DNA of 64,000 nucleotides from Heptranchias perlo (taxonomy: Eukaryota), in NCBI RefSeq assembly GCF_035084215.1, contig NC_090350.1, positions 29,326,001-29,390,000 of the forward strand. The letters run 5' to 3'. The position numbers were made by a program, and so were the translations under genes. Shown piece by piece: positions 1 through 64,000 of this stretch. The notes beneath the pieces were generated by a model. It was given only the letters and a program-made list of their open reading frames with translations. It was not told the DNA's origin and made no database searches. The number at the start of each line of letters is the position of its first letter. The stretch's first letter is position 1.

Positions 1-1437
1 TTTTTTTTAAAGCATAAAAAATAGAAAAGACAGTTATTTCCTGCTGGTTTCTGTGATCTTGATAACCTAGTCTCTCCCCAAGGGAAGGAGCTGGAGATTT
101 AAAGCAGCTGCCAAACTAGAAATACTTCCCTCAGTGACAGCAATTAGCTATTTAGAGTACTTTCTCAAAGACCTTAAAAGGGACAAGTTAAACACTGAAC
201 CACCTTAGCAGCTAATGTCATGGGTGGGTGGGGGAGGAGGAGGGGGAATAGGCACTTTAGATTCCTAGCTGGTTCTTATGGATACTCAACATTGTTTCTA
301 CATTCATCGTATTTCCTTGTTCTACTGCCTCTCTTTATATACATCAGTTAGGCATGCGAATCAGCCAGGTGTGGTTAAAAATAACTTTTATTTGCTACCA
401 AAGTGCCGTCATTGAATCGACCACTGTACAATCTAGGAAATCAAAAACCACAGCTATTAAATCATTTACAATTCCTTCCTTAACTCCCGTATAGCTAGAG
501 GTACAAAATACAAATTCCCGAATTAAATATATACAAATTATAATACCTTTTGGAGAAAGAGAGAGATAAAGCTAGGTCTTGTCTACAATCATCAAGTAAG
601 CAGGCTGTTGCATCTGGCTACAAGGTGGGTTTTTAATTTTTTTTAAAGGTTTGCACCAGCCCCAGCAATGTTGGACTCCAGCAACATGCTGGCGATACTA
701 GTATCCAGGGTTGCAATGATGGTAATGAGGGAAGTTGTAGCACGCAATGTCCCTTTATTATTGCCACCTTATTTGGTTATCCTTACTGGTTTTTGGGCAG
801 TGCTTTTGCATCACTAGAAATGACACCAGAAAATTGCTCCTGGGCCAGAAATTGGACATAATAGAATGCCCAATGTTCTGCCACTGCCCATCCAAGTTAC
901 ACCAGAAAACTGGCATAACTTGAGAGGAAAATCCTCCTGACCATGTCTAATACATAGGCCTCAATGCTTACTCGAATGATGACCGAATGCTTAAACCTTT
1001 ACTCTGTTGTTCTAGTATTTGTCTTCTCTCTGGCAAAAATGAATGAAAGCAATTCAACCACTCAGAACAATCATAAAATAAACAAGCAGTGCAAAATTTT
1101 AAATATAAAGTTTCACTTGTCACACTAAGCATCACAACTGTGCTCCACCATTTGTTGACAATGTCCCAGGAGATCAGCTTGTAATTAAGTGTATGTCTGG
1201 CATTTTGATAAGAACTTTATGAAAGGGAAGGTAATAATGTCATGATGTTTAATAGAGAAGGCACCCATATTGGTTACAAACTGCTATTAACATTGCAGTA
1301 TTCCTTTTCATTGTTGTATGAGGCCTATAATAATCTCTGAAAAAGTTGCAGTACAGTTCTAGCAATTTCAATTTTTTTTTAAACAAAATCACGTTTTATT
1401 GTAGTAATCCACTTGATTACTGTCATTTTTAAAAGCA

Positions 1438-1650
1438 TGATGTGGAGATGCCGGTGATGGACTGGGGTTGACAATTGTAAACAATTTTACAACACCAAGT
1501 TATAGTCCAACAATTTTATTTTTAATCCCACAAGCTTTCGGAGGCTTCCCCCTTCCCACACCACCTGAGGAAGGGGGAAGCCTCCGAAAGCTTGTGGGAT
1601 TAAAAATAAAATTGTTGGACTATAACTTGGTGTTGTAAAATTGTTTACAA
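1438..1650. mobile_element. Penelope-like element fold-back (hairpin) mini-insertion with hammerhead ribozyme
   Basis: Near-perfect ~84-bp inverted arms (1473-1556 vs 1569-1652). ~35-nt unpaired tail (tgatgtggagatgccggtgatggactggggttgac) matches the 3' end of the GIY-YIG element at 50490-50527. Flanking duplication ttttaaaagca at 1427-1437 and 1651-1661. Confidence 0.9.
1561..1597 (+). ncRNA. Minimal hammerhead ribozyme motif (PLE type)
   Basis: ccac-CTGAGGA-a-gggg-gaagc-ctcc-GAAA-gctt-gtgg: CUGANGA and GAAA cores, 4-bp stem I (ccac/gtgg), 4-bp stem II, palindromic AGCU stem III. Confidence 0.75.
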
Positions 1651-2539
1651 TTTTAAAAGCAGACTAAGGCTCAGAGAGCAATTTTTTTGAATCTATGAAA
1701 TTGTCTAGACAGTGACAGCAAATAAATATATAGTTGCATCACTTGATATTTTATATCTTTCTATTTCTTTTCGCAGGGCAAAAGGAAAGAAAACCAAAGA
1801 TCTTTTAAATATCAAGAGCTTTTATATTTGACTATAACACCAACAATGTCAAAAATACCAAAATGTGCTAAATACAGTGATCTTACAGCAATTTAGAAAT
1901 TGAAAATCTCCAACAAAATGGTTTGCTGTGACAGTCAAGCTTTTACTTATGGGAAATAGTAACTGCATTAAGAGCTGGTGGAAATTAAAAGTTCATCATC
2001 TTCTCTGGATATTATTTGTTAAAGGTACACATCTGTGAAATTCTTACTTCTTGGGGGGGATCACTAATATGTTTAATGTTTGACAGTTATCACTGCAGTT
2101 TTTAAAAAATCTCTTGTGAAGGCTTTTTTCATACTGTCACATACTGATTGTGACAGTCTCTGATGCACCCACTGAATCTTTACTGATGCATTAGTACAGC
2201 CAATCAGATGAATGCCTCAAGGTCAATTTTCAAACAGGATATACAGGCCACAGCAGCTATGTTGTTCTGAAAATGATGTCTCCATGTTTGATAAGCAAAG
2301 CAGACAAGAACAGGTGGGTAAATGAATGACACTAATAGAATTTGAGCTGAGCATAAAGATGGGAGAGAAGAAATAACATAACCAAACAGGTTATTTTATA
2401 AATAACTTATCAATGTCACCAAAATTCCATCATTTCTTCCCTCTTCTCCCCTTTTGTCCTTTCTTCTTTCCGTCACAAGGTGTTTACTCATGATAGTGTA
2501 TGGTTGCACAGGCATAAGCAGCTCTACAGTGCCTCACTC

Positions 2540-3640: not shown

Positions 3641-4836
3641 ATGGGTGGTCTGCTAGGGCTCCCGCTGGGCATTGAGCATGACTGGGAGTATGCAGAGAAG
3701 CCACTCATAGTAGGTCAAGCTGCAAGGAGAGGGAGAACGAGGAGGCGCAGGGCACTGAGCTGGAGAACCTATCCAATGAGAGCCATCCGGGACCAATTCT
3801 CTTATCTCAACATGACCGAGGAGGATTGCATCCGAGGTTCACCAAAAAAGCCGTGACTGAGATCTGTCAACTGGTGCGGTCACAACTGCAGCCTCAGAGC
3901 AGGGCAAGGACAGCATTGCCTGTGGCTGTAAAGATCACCGTGGTGCTGAATTTCTACGGCTCAGGATCATTTCAGGCCTCTGCTGGTGACGTGTGCAACA
4001 TCTCGCAATGTGCAGTGCACTGCTGCTTAAGAGAGGTCAGAGACACACTGTACCAGATGAGGACCATGTTTATCACCTTCCCTCTTGACAGAGACAAGCA
4101 GAACGAGCGAGCATGGGGATTCGCTCGCATTGCTGGCTTCCCCATGGTGCAGGGTGCCATTGACTGCACACACATTGCCCTGCGTGCCCCTCATATCAAC
4201 TCAGCCGTCTTCATCAACCGAAAGGGCTTCCATTCCCTCAACTTGCAGCTGGTGTGTGACCACACGCTTCGAATCATGGAGGTCGATGCCCACTCCCCTG
4301 GAAGCAGTCACAACTTCATCATCATGCAGCAGTCCAACGTGCCAGCTATCTTTCACCCACCTCGGCAAGTCAAAGGCTGGCTACTGGGCAACAAGGGCTA
4401 TCCCCTCACACTGTGGCTCATGAATCTGGTCAGGAACCCACGCACAAGTGCACAGTAGGCCTATAATGAGAGCCATGCTGCCACACGCAACATCGTGGAG
4501 CACACCATAGGCCTCCTCAAACAACGCTTCCGCTGCCTGGACTGGTCTGGAGGAGCCCTGCAGTACTCCACTGAGCAGGTGGGCAGATTCGTGGTGGTAT
4601 GCTGCATGCTGCAAAACCTTGCCATCATGAGGGACCAGCCTTTGCCATCAATGATCGGAGAAGATACTGAGCCAGAGGTGGAGGAGGAGGAAGCTGAGGA
4701 GGAAAAGACTGAGGAGGAGGAAGAGGGGGAGGAGCCGGAAGAGGAAGTGGAGGAAGACACAGGTGTGCAACAGGGACCACACACCTTGTCTGCAAGGGCT
4801 CTGCTTGCTCGCCTGACCCGTGCCCGCGATCAATAA
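3641..4836 (+). pseudogene. Harbinger (HARBI1-like) DDE transposase pseudogene
   Basis: Motifs LNFYGSGSFQ, GFPMVQGAIDCTH, NRKGFHSLNLQLVCD, EHTIGLLKQRFRCLD and an acidic tail. Frameshift near 3826-3840 and in-frame TAG at 4456-4458. Confidence 0.92.
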
Positions 4837-5083: not shown

Positions 5084-5960
5084 CTATCCTAGTGCTCCGA
5101 CGAGGTGCTTCCCCAGTGGCTGGAACATGGGTGGTGGGAGGCTGCTAGCCTTCAATGGAGGAGCATGCAGATAACCTTGGAGGATGACCTCAAGCAGCTC
5201 TGGGCCGGGAGGGCTCGGTTTCATACTGCACCATCTCAGCATGGGCTGCAGCAGTCTGGCCGATAGGCAACAACAGGGGCACTGGTGGAGTGGCAGGGGT
5301 GGGAGCAGGAACGCTGTTGTCCTGAGAGAGGGCAGGAGGTTCGACTGCCATGATGCCACTGCCACTCTCCCGGGGCGGTGTCTCAGCAATCCTGGTGATC
5401 AGCTGGAGAACGGATTGCTGGAGTGCTGTGACGCCCTGGAAGCCCTGTTCCACAGTGATCCCCACAGCCACGATAGCAGCAGTCTGAGCTTCATATGCAG
5501 CAGTCTGAGCTTCCATTGCAGATGGAGATGCAGATCTTTGATGACATCAGTTTGTGCTGCAATGGTAGCCTCGACCTCGGCCATCAGACGCTGCATCATG
5601 GTGGGTTCCACAGGTGTGATGATGGAGGTGACCACCCGTTACATGTTGGAAAGGATGGGCTCCGAGCTCTGCACAAAGTCCTGTGCCAAGTTGGAGCTGG
5701 ACTTCTCCGTGCCCCTTCTCATTGTGTGCAGGCTTCCTGGCAGGCTTTCCAGTGCCCCAAGCATTTGGTGGTGTACGCCCATCAGCCGTCCTCTGTAGCC
5801 TGGCCCATCGAAGTCCTCATCTGACTTCTCTGCAGCAGAACTAGTGAGCGACCTCGCCGTCTGGCAAGCTGGCACCTGTGGTATCCGTCCCCCCCCCCCC
5901 GCCCCGGCTCCTGCGCACTTCTGCTCAGTGTCTCACCACGTGCAGATCCCTCCTCTAACC
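5084..5960 (-). pseudogene. Degraded 3' part of the Harbinger Myb/SANT-like accessory gene
   Basis: Broken minus-strand ORFs with low-complexity, coiled-coil-like content (e.g. MMQRLMAEVEATIAAQT), lying between the transposase and the Myb exon. Confidence 0.55.
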
Positions 5961-5961
5961 T

Positions 5962-6203
5962 ATGCAAGGAATCTTACAACACCAAGTTATAGTCCAACTG
6001 TTTTATTTGAAAATCACAAGCTTTCGGAGGCTTTCTCCTTCGTCAGGTGAGTGTGGGATTCGGATTCCATGGAAGGTTACCGCATTTATAGTCAGAGAAC
6101 AATACCTGGTGATTACAGATAATCTTTCCAACTGCCCGTTGTCAAGGCAATCAAAGTGTTCAGACAGAGAGATGTTACCTACAGGACCACCGAATACACA
6201 AAC
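5962..6203 (-). mobile_element. Penelope-like 3' terminal fragment with intact hammerhead motif (6014-6050), inserted in Harbinger
   Basis: Homologous to 48434-48670. Reverse strand reads tcac-CTGACGA-a-ggag-aaagc-ctcc-GAAA-gctt-gtga. Confidence 0.88.
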
Positions 6204-6241
6204 GGCTCTGGATGTGCCACTTGCCACTTGCATTCACTCAC

Positions 6242-6457
6242 CTTGACCACTCGTGTCAAATCATTGAACTTCTTTTGGCACTGCACCCACGCCACAACCT
6301 GTCAATGCCTGCGGAGCTGCAATCTGGAGGGTCTCCTGCCACCCTGCGGGTACTTGTTGGCCCTCCTTTCATCCATCCCTTCCACCGGAGCCTCCAGTCC
6401 ATCATCCGTGAAGCATGGGGCCCTCTCTTGCGCCGGTCCTGCCATCCTTGCGGCCAT
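6242..6457 (-). pseudogene. Harbinger Myb/SANT-like DNA-binding protein exon 1 (disrupted)
   Basis: My translation: MAARMAGPAQERAPCFTDDGLEAPVEG...*QVVAWVQCQKKFNDLTRVVK, then a gtgagt donor. Matches the RAPxF...QCxKKFNDL trihelix signature; contains one stop. Confidence 0.8.
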
Positions 6458-7478
6458 CTTTCCCTCTTAGTGAGCTGCGTATGTCCCATCTAAAATGGGC
6501 ACCTGCACCATTAAGAGATGCAGGCTGCTGATGATGTGCGCTGAGCACGCCCCATTTCCAACTTCCTCATTCTCCACGCAGCCTCTCAGCAGCGCAGGTA
6601 GCGCTGGCTGCATGGAGATATCATGGTAAATAGCAGGCAGCTCGAAATTCACGTGCTGCCTGTGTAGGGGCCATCGGGCGGTGGGTAATAGCGCATCACG
6701 CTACCCATGCCCGAAAACGGCCTTTATCGAATTTTTTCCAACATCCACTTTTATGTCATTTTGTTCGTCCACAAAAACCATGGTACTTAAAAATAATAAT
6801 TAAACTTAAAGAACATTTGACTGTTCAGAGTGAGATAAAGGGGGAATCTATTAGACTGTAAGGAAATCAATACTTGCTGTTGGCTGGAGGTGTTTTTCAG
6901 TCAGTTTCTACAGATTTTTTATATGTCAATTGTAAGCTAAAAGAAAAATACACACAAAATTAATATCTAAATTCTTCCTTGTTGATAAATCTGTAAAATG
7001 CATTGCAAAACTTCTCATAATCATTAAGTGGCCAGAATGAGTTCTGTCAAAAAGCTTTTTTTGAAAAATTTCTAAGTTAATGTAGCGATTTAATAGTAAA
7101 ATATGATGGGTATAATTATCTATGAAATAATACTAGTAAAGTTAAAAAAAAGCACAGAATCATGAGCACTTAGGGGTTTGTAGATTGTCCTTTCACATCT
7201 GTGCTCTGAATTTGGATCCAGCCCAGTATCTTCCATCTGTTAGCTGTAAAAGTCCTAAATGAAATTAATCTGGGCAATCTCAATTTAGTTTCCAGAAACC
7301 ACTGCTCCATGGAGTAAAGTTGCCCAAAATTCTATACTGAAATACATGAAAATGGCTCGGGTGGGGGTTAATGCACATTATTGGGAGCTTTCTTCCACAT
7401 TTAATCACTGTTACACTTGACCCAAGAAAGCATTTTGCTGATAAAGGATATATAAAAGTTGAAGTTAATTTTATAAAA

Positions 7479-9146: not shown

Positions 9147-10479
9147 GTAAGTGCATTTATGCTATTCTGTCTCAATCTATACATGAACTAAAGTTGCTGC
9201 TGTTTTTTCAGTGTTGGAGAAATTGGTGCAGTTTTTCAGCATAAGTGCACAATTTATTTTTCACTATTGCTTACGTGAAGCAGTTTAACCTTAGGAGGCA
9301 AGTTATATTGAGATTCGTGTTTACTTTGGGCCTTGGCAAGGGTATGAACCTGCATTCAATTAAAGCCATGAGATTATATGCTATGTTATGCTTTATTATT
9401 CACGAGGATGTCTCATCCAAGGGATAGTCCATAGGTGGGGCTTGGACCCCTTCAAGTTTCTGGTTAAGACACAAGAAGGCAAACATAAATTTTAGATGCC
9501 ATTACTTAAAATATAATAGAATAAAATAAATCTTAATTAAGCAACAATATTCTAAAATGTGAAAGGAAGTATCTAGCTAAATTTTCTAATTCCTATTTCT
9601 TTATTGAATAGTTTTAATTCACCTCCTTGGATTAATAAAAAGATAGAAATGTTTTATGCTCCAGAATCAGAGGATTGGTTGTATAGCAGAGTCCTGATAA
9701 AATTGACTCCAGGGAAAAGCTGATTTTAACTTGGATCTGAATTTACCAGGATGGAACTACCGTGGTCCAGTGATATGCAACCAAGGTGCAGTCACTCACA
9801 CAATAATTCTGGGAATCAGAAGCAGAGGACGAGTTAACCCGCATCACCTGATGATCTCCTACCAAGCAATTAGTGATGCTGCTCATATGCACTTTATTCC
9901 AATTTAATACAATTCTTTTATATTGTTTTTACTTCTGATAGGTGACTTGAAATTTAATTGTAAATCATCTTAACAATATGCTTATTTTATGCACTGGGGA
10001 AGATTTCCAGTGTTCTCTATTTGTAGGGAAATTGTAAACATATATAAAGAAAGCTCTTGTGATTTTACTACAAATAGTGAAGAGAGCAAATCTCCTTTTG
10101 CCACCATCCCCTTCCGCAGCTACCACCCCTCCCCCCCACCTCCTCCGGTGTTTACAGACTACATTTCATCCAGTTTCATTCCATGTCTTGTTTTTTTGTA
10201 GTACAGTTTGTTTTTCTTCCCACAAAAGTACTGCAAAGTAAAATAAATACACAGAAACATAAAAAAATGGAATGAAGAAAGGCTACTGGGCTGTCAATCC
10301 AATTCCTTCCAATCGACGACATCCTCATAATGATTAGAGAGAGTATGGAAAGAATAGTAGATAATCACATCCATATATTTTATTTTCCACTTTTGTCAAT
10401 TGATGTGCATATAATGTGCATACTTGTTTTATGTTTCCTGCTTCAATATGTAATACTTTACATTGTTCAAATTAAAAAT

Positions 10480-38134: not shown

Positions 38135-40185
38135 GGGCTCGATTTTAGGAGCGTGTTTCCGGCGGGTTCCCAGCGGGGTGGCCCCGAAAATCCCGATCTC
38201 CGGTCACGTGACCGGATCGCGACGAAATCCCGGCCACTTCCGGGTACCGCGCTGACGTGCGGGGCTGCGCGCGCAAGCCCCGCTGGTGGGAATCCCGCAG
38301 GCAATTAAAGCCAGCGGGGTTCCACTTGAGAGTACTTAACTTGCTCGTTGTGGTCAGTTAATGAGCTGAAGCAGCTGTCAAAAGAGGAAGTGTGGGATTT
38401 TAGGTTCAAGGCAGTGAGTTTCCCACACTGGGAGAAACAGTCTCCCTCCAACCAGGCGTGTTGCAGCCAGCAGCCTGTGGCAGGTGCCAAGGTGCACTCC
38501 ACGGGGGAGAGCCCTCACCCACGCAGGAGGCCACCGCGTCACATAGGGCAACCCCTGCCCTCCACCACCCCCCGCCAAGCCAGAGGACAGACCGACACGA
38601 AACCGCAGCCCCAGTCCGAGGAACCACACACCTACCCTGCACAACCCCTCAGACCAACACCTGCCAGTTGGGTGGTGTGTGGACACCCTCGGAGGACGAA
38701 GAGCATGACCAGCACCAGCAGCCTCGCAGTCCACGCCGTCCGCCTCAGAGACGTGGATCCCCCCAACACGGTGTTGTTGCACGCCCACCTGCACAGCAGG
38801 AGGGAGGGCTACCGCAGAGAGAGACGCGTCGCAGAGGGCACTACCCTCGCCACAGGGTCCACAGACCGAGGCGCAGCTCCCCGGACCTCTTCGAGCAGCA
38901 GTGCACAGGGAGGCGCAGATTCGCTCGACATGTAGTCGTGGAGATCTGCAGCCTCTTTCATGCCGAGCTGCTCCTGGCTGGCCCCAGCACCAACTGCTTA
39001 ACTGTCGCTGGCAAAGTCACCACTGCCCACCACACCTTCTCCTCCGCATCCTTCCAGGGTGCAGCCGGCTACACCGCCGATGTCTCTCAGTCGTCTGCGC
39101 GGACGAGCCCTGCAAATACACCTGCACCTACTCTGCAGTAACACGATGGGTGGCATCAGTGGTGGGTCCTCATAGTGATACCCAGGAGCGGGCATTATTG
39201 GACACAACGGACAGGATTTGTGGAGACATGGCAGTGGTGGTGTCAATATAATGTGTGCTGTTTGTTGCTCTGAAATTCAATATGGGTAACACCCATGACA
39301 AACCCTCAGACACCCTTGTGCATCCCCTTCATGCTCACGACACGTTTGCCTTACGCTGCCTACTGCACATATGTGATGCATGCCCTGTGGCTGCAGCACA
39401 GGTGGTGGCAGGTTGAGTGAGGCTGGCCGTGAGGGAGATGCACGAGAGGGTGAGTATGGGATGGAGCCATGAGATTGTATGAGGATTGGGTTGCGTGTTA
39501 GTGGCAGGATGAGTACTGGCGAGGTGAGTAGGTGGAGGTAAGATGAGGATGGGGTGTGAGTGGGTATGAAGGGTGATGTGACAGAATAGTGTTGGCGGTG
39601 CCGAAGGAGATGTGGGGTGGGGGCAGTGTTGTGGCAGACGGAGTGTAGGGGAAAGACTTCGTGTTCTCACTGTGGCTGACCTACTGCGGTCATTGCAGCG
39701 CCTCCTGCACTGTATGCAGTTGGGCCATATGTTGGTGGCGCAGGTGACCCCCTCTGCCACCTCGAGCCAGGCCTTCTTGGTGGCAGAGGCAGGCCGCTTC
39801 CTCCCGCCCGCCGGGGGGAAGATCTGTGTCCTCCCCCTCCTCCTCACCCCATCTGATGATACCTGGGGTGAGGCATCATTAAACTGGGAGCAGCCTTCCC
39901 CCTGGGCTGCTCCATGCTGCAATTTGTCCCATTGGTTGCAGCATCTGTCAGTGGAGGACTGCCCCTTTAACTAGAGAGCCTCCAGCTGACAGATCGTACT
40001 GCGCATGCGCAGCCCGACCGACGCGCAGGCCAGCGCCGTGGACCCCGGAGGAGCAGGTAATTGATTCCTATTAGGGTGTTGCCTGCTACGATCGCGTGGG
40101 CAACCCACTAATTTCGCCGTCCGCGTTTTCGACGCTCCCGGAGGACCACCCGCTGGGAACCCGCAGGCCTGCTAAATTCGAGCCC
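38135..40185. mobile_element. Non-autonomous Harbinger (internal deletion derivative)
   Basis: TIR gggctcgattttag / ctaaattcgagccc (13/14); tgt duplicated on both sides. 5'-only transposase (+, ~38704-39110) and Myb/SANT exon (-, ~39670-39917). Confidence 0.92.
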
Positions 40186-40570
40186 TGTATGTTCATCCCC
40201 ATGCTGATTCACTCTCCTTCTACATAGCTTCAGAGCATCATGTATATTAACTTTTTAATTTAGTTTTGAAACTGAGTCTAAATGAAAACAGAACACAATT
40301 TACAACCAAAGTATTATAAAAACAAATTACTCTCAATTTCTAGCACATGTTACTATGTCTCAAGGCTGCCCATATAAGGTGTGTTGAGAAACTGAGAAAT
40401 TCATGTTTAAAACATAAGTAATTGAAGACAGTTATGTTTGGCTTCCGATTATTCCTGAAATAGGGATTTTATTTAATTGTGTGAAGAGATGAATGCTACA
40501 AATGTAAAGACAAAGGGAACAAAGCCTACAGTCAGGTCTGTGTTCAGAAAATCACATTTATATTTTGTAG

Positions 40571-45472: not shown

Positions 45473-45498
45473 CCATTATGTCAATCTATTACAATCTA

Positions 45499-45708
45499 TG
45501 ATGTGGAGATGCCGGTGATGGACTGGGGTTGACAAATGTAAGGAATCTTACAACACCAGGTTATAGTCCAACAGTTTTATTTGAAAATCACAAGCTTTCG
45601 GAGGCTTTCTCCTTCGTCACCTGACGAAGGAGAAAGCCTCCGAAAGCTTGTGATTTTCAAATAAAACAGTTGGACTATAACCTGGTGCTGTAAGATTCCT
45701 TACACATG
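45499..45708. mobile_element. Penelope-like fold-back mini-insertion (second subfamily)
   Basis: ~83-bp inverted arms meeting at cgtca-cc-tgacg; 35-nt tail; duplication ttacaatcta at 45489-45498 and 45709-45718. Confidence 0.92.
45617..45653 (+). ncRNA. Minimal hammerhead ribozyme motif
   Basis: tcac-CTGACGA-a-ggag-aaagc-ctcc-GAAA-gctt-gtga. Confidence 0.78.
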
Positions 45709-45884
45709 TTACAATCTAGTTGCAGCCTCTGACCACTAGGTGGCTTTCTGGAGTGAGTTTCTGAAGAATCTTTCTCTACTCCATTGCTATCTTGTGTACA
45801 AAAAAGAGTAATATTTCTTAACTGACCATGAGCAACATCACAGGCAATTTACTAGTCCTATATTAAAAAAAAATCAATGATTGG

Positions 45885-46699: not shown

Positions 46700-48484
46700 A
46701 AACAAGGCAAATGTCCACTGACACAGTGTTCAGATGGAAAAGACAAGCCCATTCTTTTCTCCTAGTCGGATACACTGAGACACGGAGCGATCATCCAGCT
46801 AGCTATTTGATTTCCCCATTGCAAGTACAATCGCAGACTGACCCTGGAACTGTTCCTAGAGGTAGTGCACAGAGTGCATTTATCCCAGCTACTGATCATA
46901 CCACAGCTACAGATAATAGAGATCGCTCTGAACTCAGCATGTTATTGTACTTCAATTAATAACAGGCACTTCACAACACTAGGATTTTAAAGAAAATTAA
47001 AATAAAATGCTTTGAATCAAACTTAAATTAAAATGAATGAAATGTGCTCATAATGTTTTTTTTTTGTCTGGGAATTGGGTGGGTTATACACTGCCCTTTC
47101 ACCTGAGGATCCTGAATGCAAAAAAAAAGTTCTCTTTCTCTGGGCTGGATTTTCCTTTTGTGGCAAGAAAAATAGGGAGATGTGTCATGTCGCTGCAATC
47201 CCACCACAATAAATAGCCTGCAGAATTGTTCTCCCAGAAAGCTGCCATTCACCATTGGCATCTGAGTCAAGAGCCTGTTCCACTGCACATAATTGGGGTT
47301 GGGTGGGCACGATCAAGCTGTCCCTACAATTAGCGCCCCTAACCCAACATTGAGAAACAACGCCACTATATAGATGGTGATCAGAGTAGCACAGCGGAAT
47401 CCCTGAGGTGGATAGCAAATAGAGGAGACCATCGTTGGAGAAATTTATTGCATGTTTTTGGAGAAATATTTGGGCTCAGGACCACTGAAGAGTTATCCTG
47501 CCATTTACAATGTGTTATGAGAAAATTACAATTTTTAGAGTGGAGAGATGGATTTTCCTAAGAATTTCCTGTGTTAGAAAGAGGAGGATAATGATATGGA
47601 ATATACGAGTTCGTAGGAATGCAGATGGCACTTATTTTCAACACATTGATACCGACTCCACAGGGTTTATAGACCTTGCAGGTCCTATCTTGATTTTTTT
47701 CATGAGGTAATGCATGAGGCTGCTCTTCCCCCGGGAGGCTATTGGCGAGTTATGCCAACTGCTGGCTGCAGATTTGCAGCCCAACTCAACAAAGAGCACA
47801 GCCTCGTCAGTGGCTGCTAAGGTGCCACAGCACTGAACTTTTCTGCCGCTGGATCATTTCAGGCAGCCATAGGTGATTCAATCACATAAGTCAATCTGCA
47901 GTGCACCATGGTATCAAGAAGGTGACAAATGCTCTATTCAGGTGGACCTCATGATTTATATTCTTCACTATGGACCCTGACAAGGAACATAAATGTCCTG
48001 TGAGCTTTTATGGAGGAGCAGGATTCCCCCAGATATATGATGCATTCAAAGGAACTCATTGTTGCATTGAAGGTCGCGTTTGAGAACTCCCTAAATTTTA
48101 TAAACCGAAAGGGGTATCATCAAGGTTCTATCTCCAACAATGGTCTCATCTAGTGTGCGATACCAGCTACATGATCTTGAATGTGAATGTTTGTTACCCA
48201 GGAAGCTGTTTTTGTATTTTGACCTAATACCTGCATTGATGAATTAGAATACAGTATTGGGTTGGTTGATTGGAGATCAGAGGATACTCCCTGCATCCTC
48301 AGCAGATGACACCTGTCCAGCAACTAATTTCCACAACGCAGAACAGGTAAAGCAGGGTGCTGGGATCCACCAGAATTGTTATACAGCAAGCAATCAACAG
48401 GTTGAAATCCTGTTTCAAGTGCCTTGATAGATCTGTAAACAATTTTACAACACCAAGTTATAGTCCAACAATTTTATTTGAAAA

Positions 48485-48521
48485 TCACAAGCTTTCGGAG
48501 GCTTCCTCCTTCCTCAGGTGA
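48485..48521 (-). ncRNA. Minimal hammerhead ribozyme motif
   Basis: Minus strand tcac-CTGAGGA-a-ggag-gaagc-ctcc-GAAA-gctt-gtga. The mirror copy at 50402-50438 has the core mutated to CTGGGGA. Confidence 0.78.
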
Positions 48522-48796
48522 ATGTCAAGAAATCCTCGAACCTTTCGCATTTATAAATCACAGAACAATACCTGGTGATTACAGATAGTCTTTCCAACTG
48601 CCCGTTGCCAAGGCAATCAAAGTGTTCAGACAGAGAGGTGTTACCTACAGGGCCACCGAATATACAAACAACCAAAAAAAAACAGAGAGAGAGAGAGAGA
48701 GAGGCAGAAACATAGAAACATCCGGAAGGAAGAGAAAGACAGCAAATGACCCGTTATATTAAAAACAGATAACTTTTGTTCGCTGGTGGGGTTGCG

Positions 48797-49565
48797 TGTA
48801 GCGTGACATGAACCCAAGATCCCGGTTGAGGCAGTCCTCATGGGTGCGGAACTTGGCTATCAATTTCTGCTCGACGATTTTGCGTTGTCGTGTGTCTCGA
48901 AGTCCGCCTTGGAGTACGCTTACCCGAAGGTCGGTGGCTGAATGTACTTGACTGCTGAAGTGTTCCCCGACTGGGAGGGAACCCTCCTGTCTGGCGATTG
49001 TTGCGCGGTGTCCGTTCATCCGTTGTCGCAGCGTCTGCATGGTCTCGCCAATGTACCATGCTCTGGGGCATCCTTTCCTGCAACGTATGAGGTAGACAAC
49101 GTTGGCCGAGTCACAGGAGTATGAACCATGTACCTGGTGGGTGGTGTCCTCTCGTGTGATGGTGGTATCTGTGTCGATGATCTGGCATGTCTTGCAGAGG
49201 TTACCGTGGCAGGGTTGTGTGGTGTCGTGGACGCTGTTCTCCTGAAAGCTGGGTAATTTGCTGTTTGAGGCTGGGTGGCTGTTTAAAGGTGAGTAGTGGA
49301 GGTGTGGGGATGGCCATAGCGAGGTGTTCGTCGTCATTGATGACATGTTGAAGGCTGCGGAGAACATGGCGTAGTTTCTCCGCTCCGGGGAAGTACTGGA
49401 CGACGAAGGGTACTCTGTTGGTTGCGTCCCGTGTTAGTCTTCTGAGGAGGTCTATGTGATTTTTCGCTGTGGCCCGTTGGAACTGTCGATCGATGAGTCG
49501 AGCGTCATATCCCGTTCTTACTAGGGCGTCTTTCAGTGTCTGTAGGTGTCCATCGCGTTCCTCCT
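48797..49565 (-). pseudogene. Mirror copy of PLE GIY-YIG ORF (frameshifting deletion near 49262)
   Basis: Same protein on the minus strand. It lacks a short segment present in the plus copy and extends further into the RT thumb/linker. Confidence 0.9.
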
Positions 49566-50135
49566 CATGTCATCAATGACGACGAACACCTCGCTATGGC
49601 CATCCCCACACCTCCACTACTCGCCTTTAAACAGCCACCCAACCTCAAACAGACCATCGTTCGCAGCAAATTACCCAGCTTTCAGGAGAACAGCGTCCAC
49701 GACACCACACAACCCTGCCACGGTAACCTCTGCAAGACATGCCAGATCATCGACACAGATACCACCATCACAAGAGAGGACACCACCCACCAGGTACATG
49801 GTTCATACTCCTGTGACTCGGCCAACGTTGTCTACCTCATACGTTGCAGGAAAGGATGCCCCAGAGCATGGTACATTGGCGAGACCATGCAGACACTGCG
49901 ACAACGGATGAACGGACACCGCGCAACAATCGCCAGACAGGAGGGTTCCCTCCCAGTCGGGGAACACTTCAGCAGTCAAGGACGTACAGCCACCGACCTT
50001 CGGGTAAGCGTACTTCAAGGCGGCCTTCGAGACACACGACAACGCAAAATCGTCGAGCAGAAATTGATAGCCAAGTTCCGCACCCATGAGGACGGCCTCA
50101 ACCGGGATCTTGTGTTCATGTCACGCTACACGTAA
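49566..50135 (+). pseudogene. PLE ORF C-terminus: Cys-rich linker + GIY-YIG endonuclease (5'-truncated, frame open)
   Basis: PPNLKQTIV, CxxxxCKTC, CDSANVVYLIRC..C...YIGET...LRQRMNGHR, VGEHF, R..VEQKLI, GLN. Confidence 0.93.
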
Positions 50136-51009
50136 CCCCACCAGCGAACAAAAGTTATCTGTTTTAAATATAACGGGTCATTTGCTGTCTTTCTCTTCCT
50201 TCCGGATGTTTCTATGTTTCTGCCTCTCTCTCTCTCTCTGTTTTTTTTTGGTTGTTTGTATATTCGGTGGCCCTGTAGGTAACACCTCTCTGTCTGAACA
50301 CTTTGATTGCCTTGGCAACGGGCAGTTGGAAAGACTATCTGTAATCACCAGGTATTGTTCTGTGATTTATAAATGCGAAAGGTTCGAGGATTTCTTGACA
50401 TTCACCTGGGGAAGGAGGAAGCCTCCGAAAGCTTGTGATTTTCAAATAAAATTGTTGGACTATAACTTGGTGTTGTAAAATTGTTTACAATTGTCAACCC
50501 CAGTCCATCACCGGCATCTCCACATGATTGATAGATCTGGATCTGGATAGATCTGGAGAATCCTTGGAGTACATTACAGTCCTGCTGCATGTTGCACAAT
50601 TATATACATCTCAGAAAAAGTTAATTCTCCCAGGTGATGATGAGGTGGACAAAGAGATAGATGAAGGAAGAGGCCCTCATCTCCAAATCATGTGGAGGTT
50701 GGTCCAGAAGGGGAGGAGGAGCTTCTGAGAAACCCACTGACAATCACTCAAGAAAAAAGGCAAGAAATAATCTGCAGTTGTCTCCAATAAAGATCAATCA
50801 TAACTTTCATATTAGACTATGAGACACTGAAGAAGCTCCCTCAGTCATCCTACTATGAGCACTATTCCCAAAAGCAATAAATCTTTGGCTTATTCAGGTC
50901 ATTTATGTATAACAAGAAATGCCATGATAAGAGCCCTTACAATTAAGGGGACGGCAGTAACAACTCAGTGAACTGTAGGCAATCCACAGTATTATCATCC
51001 TGTTCCTGT

Positions 51010-59990: not shown

Positions 59991-62521
59991 TTTTAATGCC
60001 AATCAGGATCAGGAATCCTAACTATTTCCCCCCTCTCTTGCGCAGGGACATTGAGGCTAAATATACGTCAGATACACTAACAAGCCAGGGCTCAAGCCTG
60101 GGATCATCCTGTTCCATATGATTCAGTACCACACCTCCTGGTATATTTATTCACTGACACTCTGGGGAACTTTCACAGTTAAGATTGGTGTGCACAGCTT
60201 CATGAAAATCAACCGTGAAAACACAAGTGACAGTTGACAGAAGTGGGACTTAGGGAAAAACAAGAAAGGAGCAAGTTTATATTTCTCTAAAATGTCTTTT
60301 TAGTGCCTATAATGTAAAGCAATATCTGAGACTGAAAGCTATTTATTGGTAGTGTGACTCAACCTAAATTGGAAGTGCTCCAAAATTGGTCATTTATTTT
60401 CCACACATTTCCACACATTTTGAGATTGAGATGGGTTAATCTTTCAAAAATGCTGATACAAGCACAAACGCAGTTCGTGTCCCTCTGTGTAGGAACAGTA
60501 CCATATTACAAATCTATTATAATGATGGATGTGATGATTGAGTGACTGGCATCTGAAGTTGAAGCTACGGCAATACGTCACTTTTTTTAAAGTTACTGAT
60601 CAAAATACCAGCCAACTGGTGTTCTAATGGGGGCATCTGATTTCTGGTAGAGTGTGTGTCGCATCCCTGGTAATGTAGATGGGAAATTTAACCTCACGGT
60701 AATAGTGGATTTATGCATCTGATCCCTGGAAATCTCATCGGAGTGGTGGAGGTAATACAACCTTGTGGCAGTGTGTTTGTGTAATCCCTGTTACTTACCA
60801 GTGAGTGTACTTACCTGTTTGCCTCAAGGTAATGTTTATTTGCTCAGTACCCGGTTATTGGACCTTCAAAGATGAACATGAAGTTGAATGAAATTATTTT
60901 ATTGCATTTTGATCTTTTTAGTCAGCATGAAATCTACTTTAGCTAAAATGGTGGACCGAAGGACACAGGTATCTCCACTACCTCCAGTCCAATTGATCTG
61001 TTTTACCAACTAGAATATCACTTCCTGAAAGACAAAATGGCCTCTTTCAACGTCATTTTCTTTATCAAGCTGAAAAGCTAATTTTCCACAAAGCACTCTA
61101 ATTACAGCAGTCGCCTGGTCAGGAGCTCATAAAACCTAACTCACAGCTTTGTAATAAAAAATGCGGTCCCTGTTATATACAACCTTCATGGGCTAATAAT
61201 AACAGATGTTGTTTTATGAACACATAAAACAATGCAGATATAACCCAAGAATTATTGGAGTCCACATTAGCATGGTATACTGCATACAGTGTGTATAGTT
61301 ACATCGAAGATGTCCTAGTCCTACATGAGAAACATCACACATAGTTGACTAACAGCACCATTTTCCCCATCAATTATTTTTAATCACTTAGGCAATAGAT
61401 ACATTTATTGATTCATCAAACATGTTTGATGTGATAAATGGACTCTAAGGTTAAAATGCAAATTTCCTTTCAGAAGAAAGCAGGCATCAAATAGAAACTG
61501 TCAGTTTTTTTTCCCCCAGCAAAAAGGAAAGCAAATTGGCCCTTTCCACGTAAAATTGAAAAGAGAAGCTTCTCAGCCTCATTTGCATTTGAAAAATTTA
61601 ATATGCTCTGGAGAACAAGGTACAGCTTCGCTCAGCTCAAGAGATTAGACTCAAAAGTTTCGTAAATTTAAAATGTTATACAAATGGCACAATGGGGCAG
61701 TAGTTCTTATAACCAGTGATACTTTGAGATTCCTGTTCGCAATCTGTTTTCATTGCAAATTCAAGGGAGGAATTAGAGATTTTAGAACTAAAAGAGAGCT
61801 AAAGAGAATAAATATAGGACCTTGAATTTAGAAATGTTTGATCCTATCACAGCAAGGTGAAATGGAGACAAGGGTTTCATCATCTGATATCAGCACTATC
61901 CAGGTTTATTTGAAAGAGTTATTCCACATTTATTTTGCTTAGGGTTTAAAAGATAACAGTCTCACTTTCTAGTTTTATTTCTTCATTCCGAGGCGATGGT
62001 TATACCTTCATAAAAAATGTGGTAAGCAAACAAAAAAAGGTTTGCCAAAGATTAGACAGTCTGATGGGATTGTGTCAAAACACGTCATAGCATTTCAGAA
62101 AAACGTGCCAACTTGCTTGATCTCAATGCAAGGAAAATGATGCACAACTTCTCCTTCCATACTGAGAAAGAGAAGAGGTCCTTTAAAGTTCTATCATTTT
62201 TAACAGCAGCAGGTCCGGGATTTGAGGAATAGAGCCTGGAGAATGAAAACACAAAGAGTGATACAATGTTTCACACACTAATTAGCACACCAGTTTTAAT
62301 TTAAAAACATTCAATCAAAACCAATCTGAACTCATCAAACCCTGAGCCAGAATAAGCTGCTCAAAATCATTAGTTTCGACAGAAAAATAAAATTAGGAAA
62401 GTACTCATTTACTTCATAGCATAGTCTTTATTTTAAAAAAAATACTACTTGTTCCATGACAAATGTGCATTGTTGGCTTGTCTGGCTAGGCAATGTTGCT
62501 CAGTTATTGACCAGACATATA

Positions 62522-64000
62522 GGGCCCGATATTAGGAGGGCGGCGGGTTGGCTGCGGGGGGTCGACTGGGCGCGTGGGTAACACGCCCAGTGAAATCGGG
62601 GTGCTCCGCACGCAATCGCAGGCTAATTGGATCCACTTACCTTGGCTTCCGGGTTTCGCGCTGGAAAGCTGCGTAGCGGGCGGACTGCGCAGCCGCATCA
62701 TAGGCTGTCAGCTGGAGGAGCCCTATTTAAAGGGGCAGTCCTCCACTGACTGATGCTGCAGAAAATAGGCAAAATTACAGCATGGAGCAGCCCAGGGGAA
62801 AGGCTGCTCCCAGGTTTAATGATGCCTCACTCCAGGTATTATTGGATGGGGTGAGGAGGAGGGGGAGGACAGAGATCTTCTCTCCGGCGGGCGGGAGGAA
62901 GCGGCCTGCCTCTGCCACCATGGAGGCCTGGCTCGAGGTGACAGAGGAGGTCACCTGCACCACCAACATATCGCCCACCTGCATAGAGTGCAGGAGGCGC
63001 TTCAATGACCTAAGTAGGTCAGCCAAAGTGAGTACACTTACTCATTCCCCTACACTCCATCTGCCCCATCACCGCCCCCACCCCACATCTCCTTCTGCAC
63101 TGCCAACACTACTCTATCACATCACTCCTCACACCCACTCAAAGCTCATCCTCATCTTACTTGCACTTACTCACCTCGCCAGTACCCATCCCGCCACTAC
63201 CACTCAACTCAATCCTCACACAATCTCATGGCTCTATCTCATACTCACTTTCTCATGCATCTCTTTCACAGTCAGCCTCACCCAACCTGCCACTACCTGT
63301 GCTGCAGTCACAGGGCATGCATCACATATGTGCAATAGGAAGCGTAAGGCAAACATGTCATGAGCATGAAGGGGATGTACAAGGGTGTTTGAGGTTTTGT
63401 CATGGTTTTTACTTATATTTGATTTCTAATCAACTCACACCACATATTATATTGTCATCACTACTGCCACGTCTTTGCGAATCTTGTCTGGTTTGTGCAA
63501 TAATGCCCTTTCCTGAGGATCACAATGAAGACCCACAACTGATGCCGCCCATTGTGTCACTGCAGAGTGGGTGTAGGTGTATTTGCAAGGCTCTTTTGTG
63601 CAGATGATTGAGAGACGTCGGCGATGTCCCTGGTGGCACCCTGGAAGGATGCGGAGGAGAAGTTGATGAGGGCAGTGGTGACTTTGACAGCGACAGGTAA
63701 GAAGATGGTGTTCGGGCCAGCCGGGAGCAGCTCGGCATGAAGGTGGCTGCAGATGTCCACGACTACATGTCGAGTGACTCTGAGCCTTCGTGTACACTGC
63801 TGCTCAGAGAGGTCCAGGAAACTGAGCCTCGGTCTGTGGACCCTGTGGCGAGGATAGTGCCCTCTGCGACGCCTCTCTCTCTGCGGTTGCTCTCCCTCCT
63901 GCTGTGCAGGTGGATGTGTCACAGCACTGTGTTGTGGGGCTCCACGTGTCAGAGGTGGACGGCCTGGACGGCAAGGCTGATGATGCTGTTCATCCTCCTC
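62522..64000. mobile_element. Non-autonomous Harbinger, same family as 38135-40185, opposite orientation, runs off window
   Basis: TIR gggcccgatattag; Myb/SANT exon (+); truncated transposase (-, 63557 onward) with the same junction. Confidence 0.92.
62782..63027 (+). CDS. Harbinger Myb/SANT-like (trihelix) exon, open
   Basis: MEQPRGKAAPRFNDASLQVLLDGV...AWLEVTEEV...TCIECRRRFNDLSRSAK, then gtgagt; tatttaaa at 62724-62731. Confidence 0.7.

Follow-up and report, generated by a model that had tools for sequence, protein, structure and literature searches.

Two fold-back insertions, at 1427-1661 (H1) and 45489-45718 (H2) of a 64,000-nt window (the whole stretch of Heptranchias perlo DNA that was analyzed), very probably arose independently of each other, as head-to-head insertions of very small size from a shark element of the Penelope/Poseidon type. 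They are likely dead by-products of ordinary target-primed reverse transcription, and their turn may lie near the hammerhead motif more often than chance would predict. They represent the short end of a layout already published for Penelope elements, consisting of an inverted pLTR, a palindrome at the junction, and a tail.

H1 is flanked by an 11-bp target-site duplication (TSD), TTTTAAAAGCA, and H2 carries a 10-bp duplication, TTACAATCTA, on both sides. Among 5,000 random site pairs, 0.06% have a direct repeat of at least 10 bp at such positions. The arms of H1 (1473-1556 and 1569-1652) match over 84 bp without a single difference and are separated by a 12-nt spacer, while those of H2 (45537-45619 and 45622-45704) show 2 mismatches over 83 bp, one of which is common to a solo copy described below (S4), around a 2-nt spacer. 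The unpaired tail measures 35 nt in H1 (1438-1472) and up to 38 nt in H2, or less if the ragged outer end of H2 is counted as arm. These new measurements bear out the initial annotation, which had reported two hairpin insertions with TSDs of 10 to 11 bp, arms of about 84 bp, and tails of about 35 nt. The coordinates of all features are collected in Table 1.

Table 1. Penelope-derived arms and target-site duplications in the window.
Feature	Position	Strand	Landmark
H1 left TSD, 11 bp	1427-1437	n/a	
H1 tail-bearing Penelope 3' pLTR arm	1438-1556	-	5' end at core G7
H1 tail-less inverted arm, complete type I minimal hammerhead motif	1557-1652	+	C3 at 1565
H1 right TSD	1651-1661	n/a	
S4, solo, tail-less, 5'-truncated copy	5962-6203	-	C3 at 6046
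H2 left TSD, 10 bp	45489-45498	n/a	
H2 tail-bearing arm	45499-45619	-	5' end at core U4
H2 tail-less inverted arm, complete minimal hammerhead motif	45617-45708	+	C3 at 45621
H2 right TSD	45709-45718	n/a	
L3 left TSD	48424-48434		
L3 long tail-less inverted arm: C-terminal ORF part, 3' UTR, hammerhead	48434-49568	-	C3 at 48517
L3 tail-bearing arm: endonuclease part of ORF, hammerhead with core change, 38-nt tail	49566-50527	+	C3 at 50406
L3 right TSD	50528-50538		

BLAST and profile searches recovered exactly seven Penelope arms in the window, distributed over four insertions. Two of these insertions were absent from the initial annotation. The first, L3 (48424-50539), spans 2.1 kb and is likewise an inverted copy of this element, with the layout of the hairpins and an 11- to 12-bp duplication. 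The second, S4, belongs to the H2 subfamily; no TSD was found around it. The terminal segment of the hairpins is common to L3, with 6 to 8 differences in 78 nt, and L3 connects them to a coding element. Its ORF part shares 93% identity with an RT domain-containing shark protein and 61% identity with the C-terminus of a second RT-bearing protein, of 881 amino acids; the RT core itself lies outside the window. The endonuclease part of the ORF occupies 49566-50135 of the tail-bearing arm. The ORF contains VVYLIRC/WYIGET motifs, which we take to be GIY-YIG, and searches of Pfam and NCBIfam gave no GIY-YIG hit for it. With kinship to an RT-linked ORF, a one-sided tail of 30 to 40 bp, a head-to-head inverted copy, and a TSD, H1, H2, and L3 would classify as EN+ Penelope-like elements (PLEs) on sequence grounds, and likeness in geometry to Anolis Poseidon suggests a placement in the Penelope/Poseidon clade.

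Several further observations concern the surroundings of these copies. The antisense arm of L3 has a 14-bp deletion near 49260, and its right end is followed by short TSD-like duplications (50539-50560). Several annotated isoforms of shark host genes (e.g., XRCC5, septin 5a, and a cytochrome P450) contain 50 to 80% of the L3 endonuclease region, representing either exonization or annotation chimeras. On the plus strand, the antisense of the border between helix I and the core reads CAG/GTGAAT at 48515-48523 and CAG/GTGAGT at 6044-6052. Both presumably resemble a 5' splice donor, and such sites could permit exonization in introns that hold the element in antisense orientation. S4 adjoins or sits inside the region of a PIF/Harbinger-like DDE_Tnp_4 transposase remnant (3682-4836 and about 5200-6500; Pfam E value, 1.6e-12). 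Two 1.5-kb copies with 83% identity lie in opposite orientations at 38698-40192 and 62515-64000, and by eye their ORFs resemble the second protein of Harbinger-type elements. The imperfect inverted repeats at 10001-10093 (78%) and 2793-2840 (82%) are unrelated to the Penelope arms.

The ends of the Penelope copies coincide. All four tail-less arms in the window stop within about 3 nt of one inner site, that of L3 being identical to those of H1 and H2, and all three tail-bearing arms stop at a second site 38 nt further on. Tails are present on one end only and comprise 35 nt in H1 and 38 nt in both H2 and L3. Counted from the start of helix II, the tail ends after 114 nt. Loose contig ends are also piled at the inner site (114 for X1 and 110 for X4), with low agreement, and consist partly of tails and partly of varied flanks.

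The tail-less arms of H1 and H2 keep the CUGANGA box, helix II, the GAAA-GC-UU segment, and a 4-bp helix I. The features of a minimal type I hammerhead are present, namely, the CUGANGA and GAAA boxes, helices I and II, a palindromic minimal helix III, and a UH site. On these motif criteria, the H1 and H2 hammerheads are complete motifs and predicted ribozymes. Across the five hammerhead motifs, 43 of 45 cells are paired, with one compensatory pair in helix I, where H1 has CCAC/GUGG and the other copies have UCAC/GUGA; with five rows only, the pairing support is not significant against shuffles (111/500). No Rfam hammerhead family matched at an E value of ≤1. Pattern scans yielded seven matches in metagenome contigs, all attributable to chance, and none in viral and prokaryote collections. 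The hairpins were also considered as microRNA precursors. This identity was rejected, given that the Rfam scores for mir-4716 (54.7 versus 76 bits) and MIR7696 (53.9 versus 83 bits) are below the gathering score and represent shape-only matches.

The initial annotation had assigned one complete ribozyme to the inverted arm and the loss of the core to the tail-bearing strand. The former part stands, as the whole motif occurs only in the tail-less arm, but the latter overstates the loss in H2, whose tail strand keeps six of the seven core letters and lacks only C3 and the 5' strand of helix I. The CTGAGGA and CTGACGA variants that it distinguished are genuine, with both cores occurring in many contigs of the same organism (position 48513). 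The arms of H1 and H2 extend 24 to 28 nt beyond the predicted cleavage site and, because they pass this site, point to uncleaved templates. The isolated hammerhead folds at -9 to -12 kcal/mol, in contrast to -146 to -159 kcal/mol for the whole-hairpin transcript of either strand, and the ribozyme is therefore predicted to be sequestered inside the hairpin RNA duplex.

The junctions carry 3 nt of microhomology. The arms of H2 overlap by TCA (45617-45619), a natural inverted repeat across helix I and the core, and those of L3 overlap by CAT (49566-49568). The corresponding TCC of H1 (1554-1556) is conditional on an upstream sequence as in S4. An overlap of at least 3 nt has a probability of 0.05 per random junction. 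Together with the two start sites, these features lead us to infer dual priming followed by a joining step. The element protein would make a cut with a 10- to 11-nt stagger in an AT-rich target. From each of the two DNA ends, cDNA synthesis on uncleaved element RNA would then begin, at the tail end for one and 35 to 38 nt further in for the other. The short cDNAs may then be joined, or one of them may snap back, via the microhomology of about 3 nt. The turn may fall near the hammerhead more often than by chance, as this is the first stable structure met by RT and yields a cDNA copy with built-in inverted repeats. The L3 arms agree at 34 of 40 listed variable sites. Five of the six exceptions are letters that hardly occur outside the antisense arm, and the sixth is a CpG. 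Neither these differences nor those between the hairpin arms separate the joining of two cDNAs from snap-back.

An alternative route to such structures is self-priming on an antisense template, in which a short palindrome lets an antisense copy fold back on itself before the resulting hairpin is integrated (Arkhipova et al. 2013). It fits the head-to-head orientation, the identical arms of H1, and the greater length of the antisense-leading arm in all three cases. By itself, however, it leaves the one-sided tail unexplained, for which two start sites on sense RNA account, and we regard self-priming as improbable. The initial annotation further offered two readings of what the hairpins are: stereotyped abortive products, with which the data are compatible, or a self-propagating, non-coding family with its own ribozyme. 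The latter could draw on the retention, in each hairpin, of a complete hammerhead and of the tail, a possible requirement of the protein, and on the existence of non-autonomous PLE-derived retrozymes. These retrozymes are direct tandem repeats, whereas the retrozyme hallmark of two or more direct tandem units that each carry a hammerhead was not found at the H1 and H2 loci, which hold single inverted units and no tandem array. In addition, tail and intact ribozyme lie on opposite strands, and the transcript duplex far exceeds the stability of the hammerhead it would sequester. Over 78 positions, 3 differences separate H2 from S4 and 6 separate H1 from L3, and H1 and H2 differ from each other at 12 to 14. 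The check for clustering and shared junctions, run on H1 and H2, gave different junctions and did not group the hairpins together. Given these unlike junctions and the closer kinship of each hairpin to a non-hairpin copy, H1 and H2 do not form one family, which, with two hairpins only, makes self-propagation highly improbable; they were likely made independently, as dead by-products. That they are chimeric fold-backs created during assembly is more improbable still. Their junctions are indeed absent from the contig joints listed, but both elements have TSDs, a one-sided tail, and, in H2, two differing sites between the arms, and the same layout recurs in L3 and in published elements.

The proximity of the turn to the hammerhead core, as initially annotated, was upheld for both hairpins, with junctions at most 11 nt from CUGANGA. 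The tail-less arm of H1 extends 8 to 11 nt upstream of C3 and that of H2 extends 4 nt. Two of the three inverted copies in the window turn within a 25-nt span, and L3 turns elsewhere, about 840 nt (sense arm) and 1,050 nt (antisense arm) upstream of the core. With one copy serving as a post hoc anchor, the P value for this clustering depends on the null, equaling 0.27 under steep truncation (mean length, 100 nt) and 0.02 to 0.11 under broader nulls. This is no more than suggestive of a hotspot of turns at the ribozyme, and the chances of a genome-wide peak are about evenly balanced. Our literature search, which covered few subscription papers, found no report tying inversion junctions to the hammerhead.

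In a contig test, the L3 arm (48430-49329) was compared to contigs of four of the seven listed runs from one sample (about 46,500 records). Two opposite-strand joints were listed and the H1 and H2 junctions were missed, and the test is hence insensitive. One joint (48483/48522) falls exactly in the helix I register, assuming head-to-head orientation, and the other (48644/49057) lies away from the hammerhead; further joints near the core with unstated orientation were excluded from this count. Joints leading back to 48434-48438 from 48467, 48516, 48760, and 49185, also of unstated orientation, have the appearance of partial-tandem Penelope copies linked via the inner start site. A stack of loose ends at 48522 (53, 59, and 18 contigs) was discarded as hotspot evidence, as its consensus fits the upstream sequence of another subfamily and alignments break there whether or not a copy is truncated. 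Similarly, the roughly three- to fourfold drop in contig depth from the terminal 90 nt to the ORF was not used, because contig depth cannot rank parts of the element.

Whether the fold itself determines the turn point is a separate matter. RT leaving the start site meets its first stable RNA structure in the hammerhead windows, yet these rank only in the top 8 to 16% of 50-nt windows. All four arm ends of H1 and H2 are located 5' of helix II, which RT would by then have passed, so a plain stall at the fold would not be the natural reading, and a causal role of the fold is doubtful. Template run-off, a protein-bound block, or cDNA self-pairing may set the turn instead. For run-off, the template would end 4 to 11 nt upstream of the core, at a transcription start or processed 5' end, and RT from the 5' pLTR would give a strong-stop-like product that folds back. 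The longer arms indeed end at the 5' edge of helix I in every case, at -4 in H2, at -8 to -11 in H1, and at -4/-5 in the contig joint. Moreover, transcription of Drosophila virilis Penelope starts inside the pLTR, and according to the available text of PMC4209133, its intron extends up to the 5' end of helix I. However, no AG acceptor directly precedes helix I in L3 or S4, and both copies continue well beyond this point, leaving run-off unlikely. A more serious contender, with a probability somewhat short of even, is that no hotspot exists: the short hairpins would represent the low end of steep truncation, or inverted copies surviving deletion, and their nearness to CUGANGA would be chance. 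The steep null, the distant turn of L3, and the average snap-back propensity of the cDNA near the core (mean, 0.13 versus 0.13 for the element in L3 and 0.16 versus 0.12 in S4) agree with it. The lower P values under broader nulls and the absence of intermediate arm lengths among the seven arms of the window speak against it. Returning to a hotspot at the ribozyme, a rather doubtful but far-reaching extension is that the hammerhead has a cleavage-independent role. A folded or protein-bound ribozyme would end RT and cDNA self-complementarity would give the fold-back, so that stereotyped 200-bp hairpins would accumulate throughout shark genomes and, on read-through, supply double-stranded RNA against the parent element.

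As known now, H1 and H2 are ordinary Penelope debris, and the layout, the junction palindromes, and opposite-strand hammerhead pairs are already in print. If a genome-wide junction peak at the hammerhead is true, it bears on the function of PLE hammerheads and on the origin of the inverted pLTR, both named as open in the literature. An adjacent, inverted, 5'-truncated copy and a 30- to 40-bp tail are typical of Penelope elements (Craig et al., PMC8557442, in the portion available), and the corresponding text of Arkhipova et al. (PMC3846280) describes inverted pLTRs, duplications of 9 to 10 bp, and junction palindromes and proposes self-priming on an antisense template. Like the canonical EN+ Penelope/Poseidon insertions in the accessible parts of PMC8557442, PMC3846280, and PMC2377424, H1 and H2 combine a head-to-head arm, a one-sided tail (35 to 38 nt here), a TSD of about 10 bp, a palindromic junction, and a pLTR hammerhead. 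They differ in that the unit comprises about 120 plus 90 nt and no ORF, and those parts of the three accounts give no junction position with respect to the hammerhead.

The hammerheads share with the type I motifs of metazoan PLEs (Cervera and de la Peña, PMC4209133, as far as its available text extends) the unpaired base after A9, the G10.1-C11.1 pair, the palindromic minimal helix III, and the short helix I. In that text, minimal PLE hammerheads lie 100 to 700 bp apart on opposite strands, and the intron of D. virilis Penelope ends at helix I. Unlike these dual motifs, only one of the two is complete in H1 and H2, and cleavage here is predicted. Non-LTR retrozymes (bioRxiv 10.64898/2026.07.22.740005, available portion) are likewise short, non-coding, derived from PLE pLTRs, and equipped with a type I hammerhead, but they form direct tandem repeats with a hammerhead per unit, whereas the hairpins are single inverted units with one hammerhead. 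The closest parallel in end geometry is Anolis Poseidon. In the available sections of Frangieh et al. (PMC11167929), its protein cuts AT-rich DNA in vitro and extends both target strands, uncleaved RNA is the main substrate, and two RT start sites bound the tail, with a start region 111 to 118 nt after the helix II start. The ORF of this element (PAc) starts at helix II, where the window copies have no ATG, and inverted junctions fall outside the analysis presented in those sections. The window copies resemble PAc in a tail bounded by two sites, a tail end 114 nt after the helix II start, AT-rich targets, and an uncleaved template, and the two-start-site geometry of Anolis Poseidon also fits the shark element.
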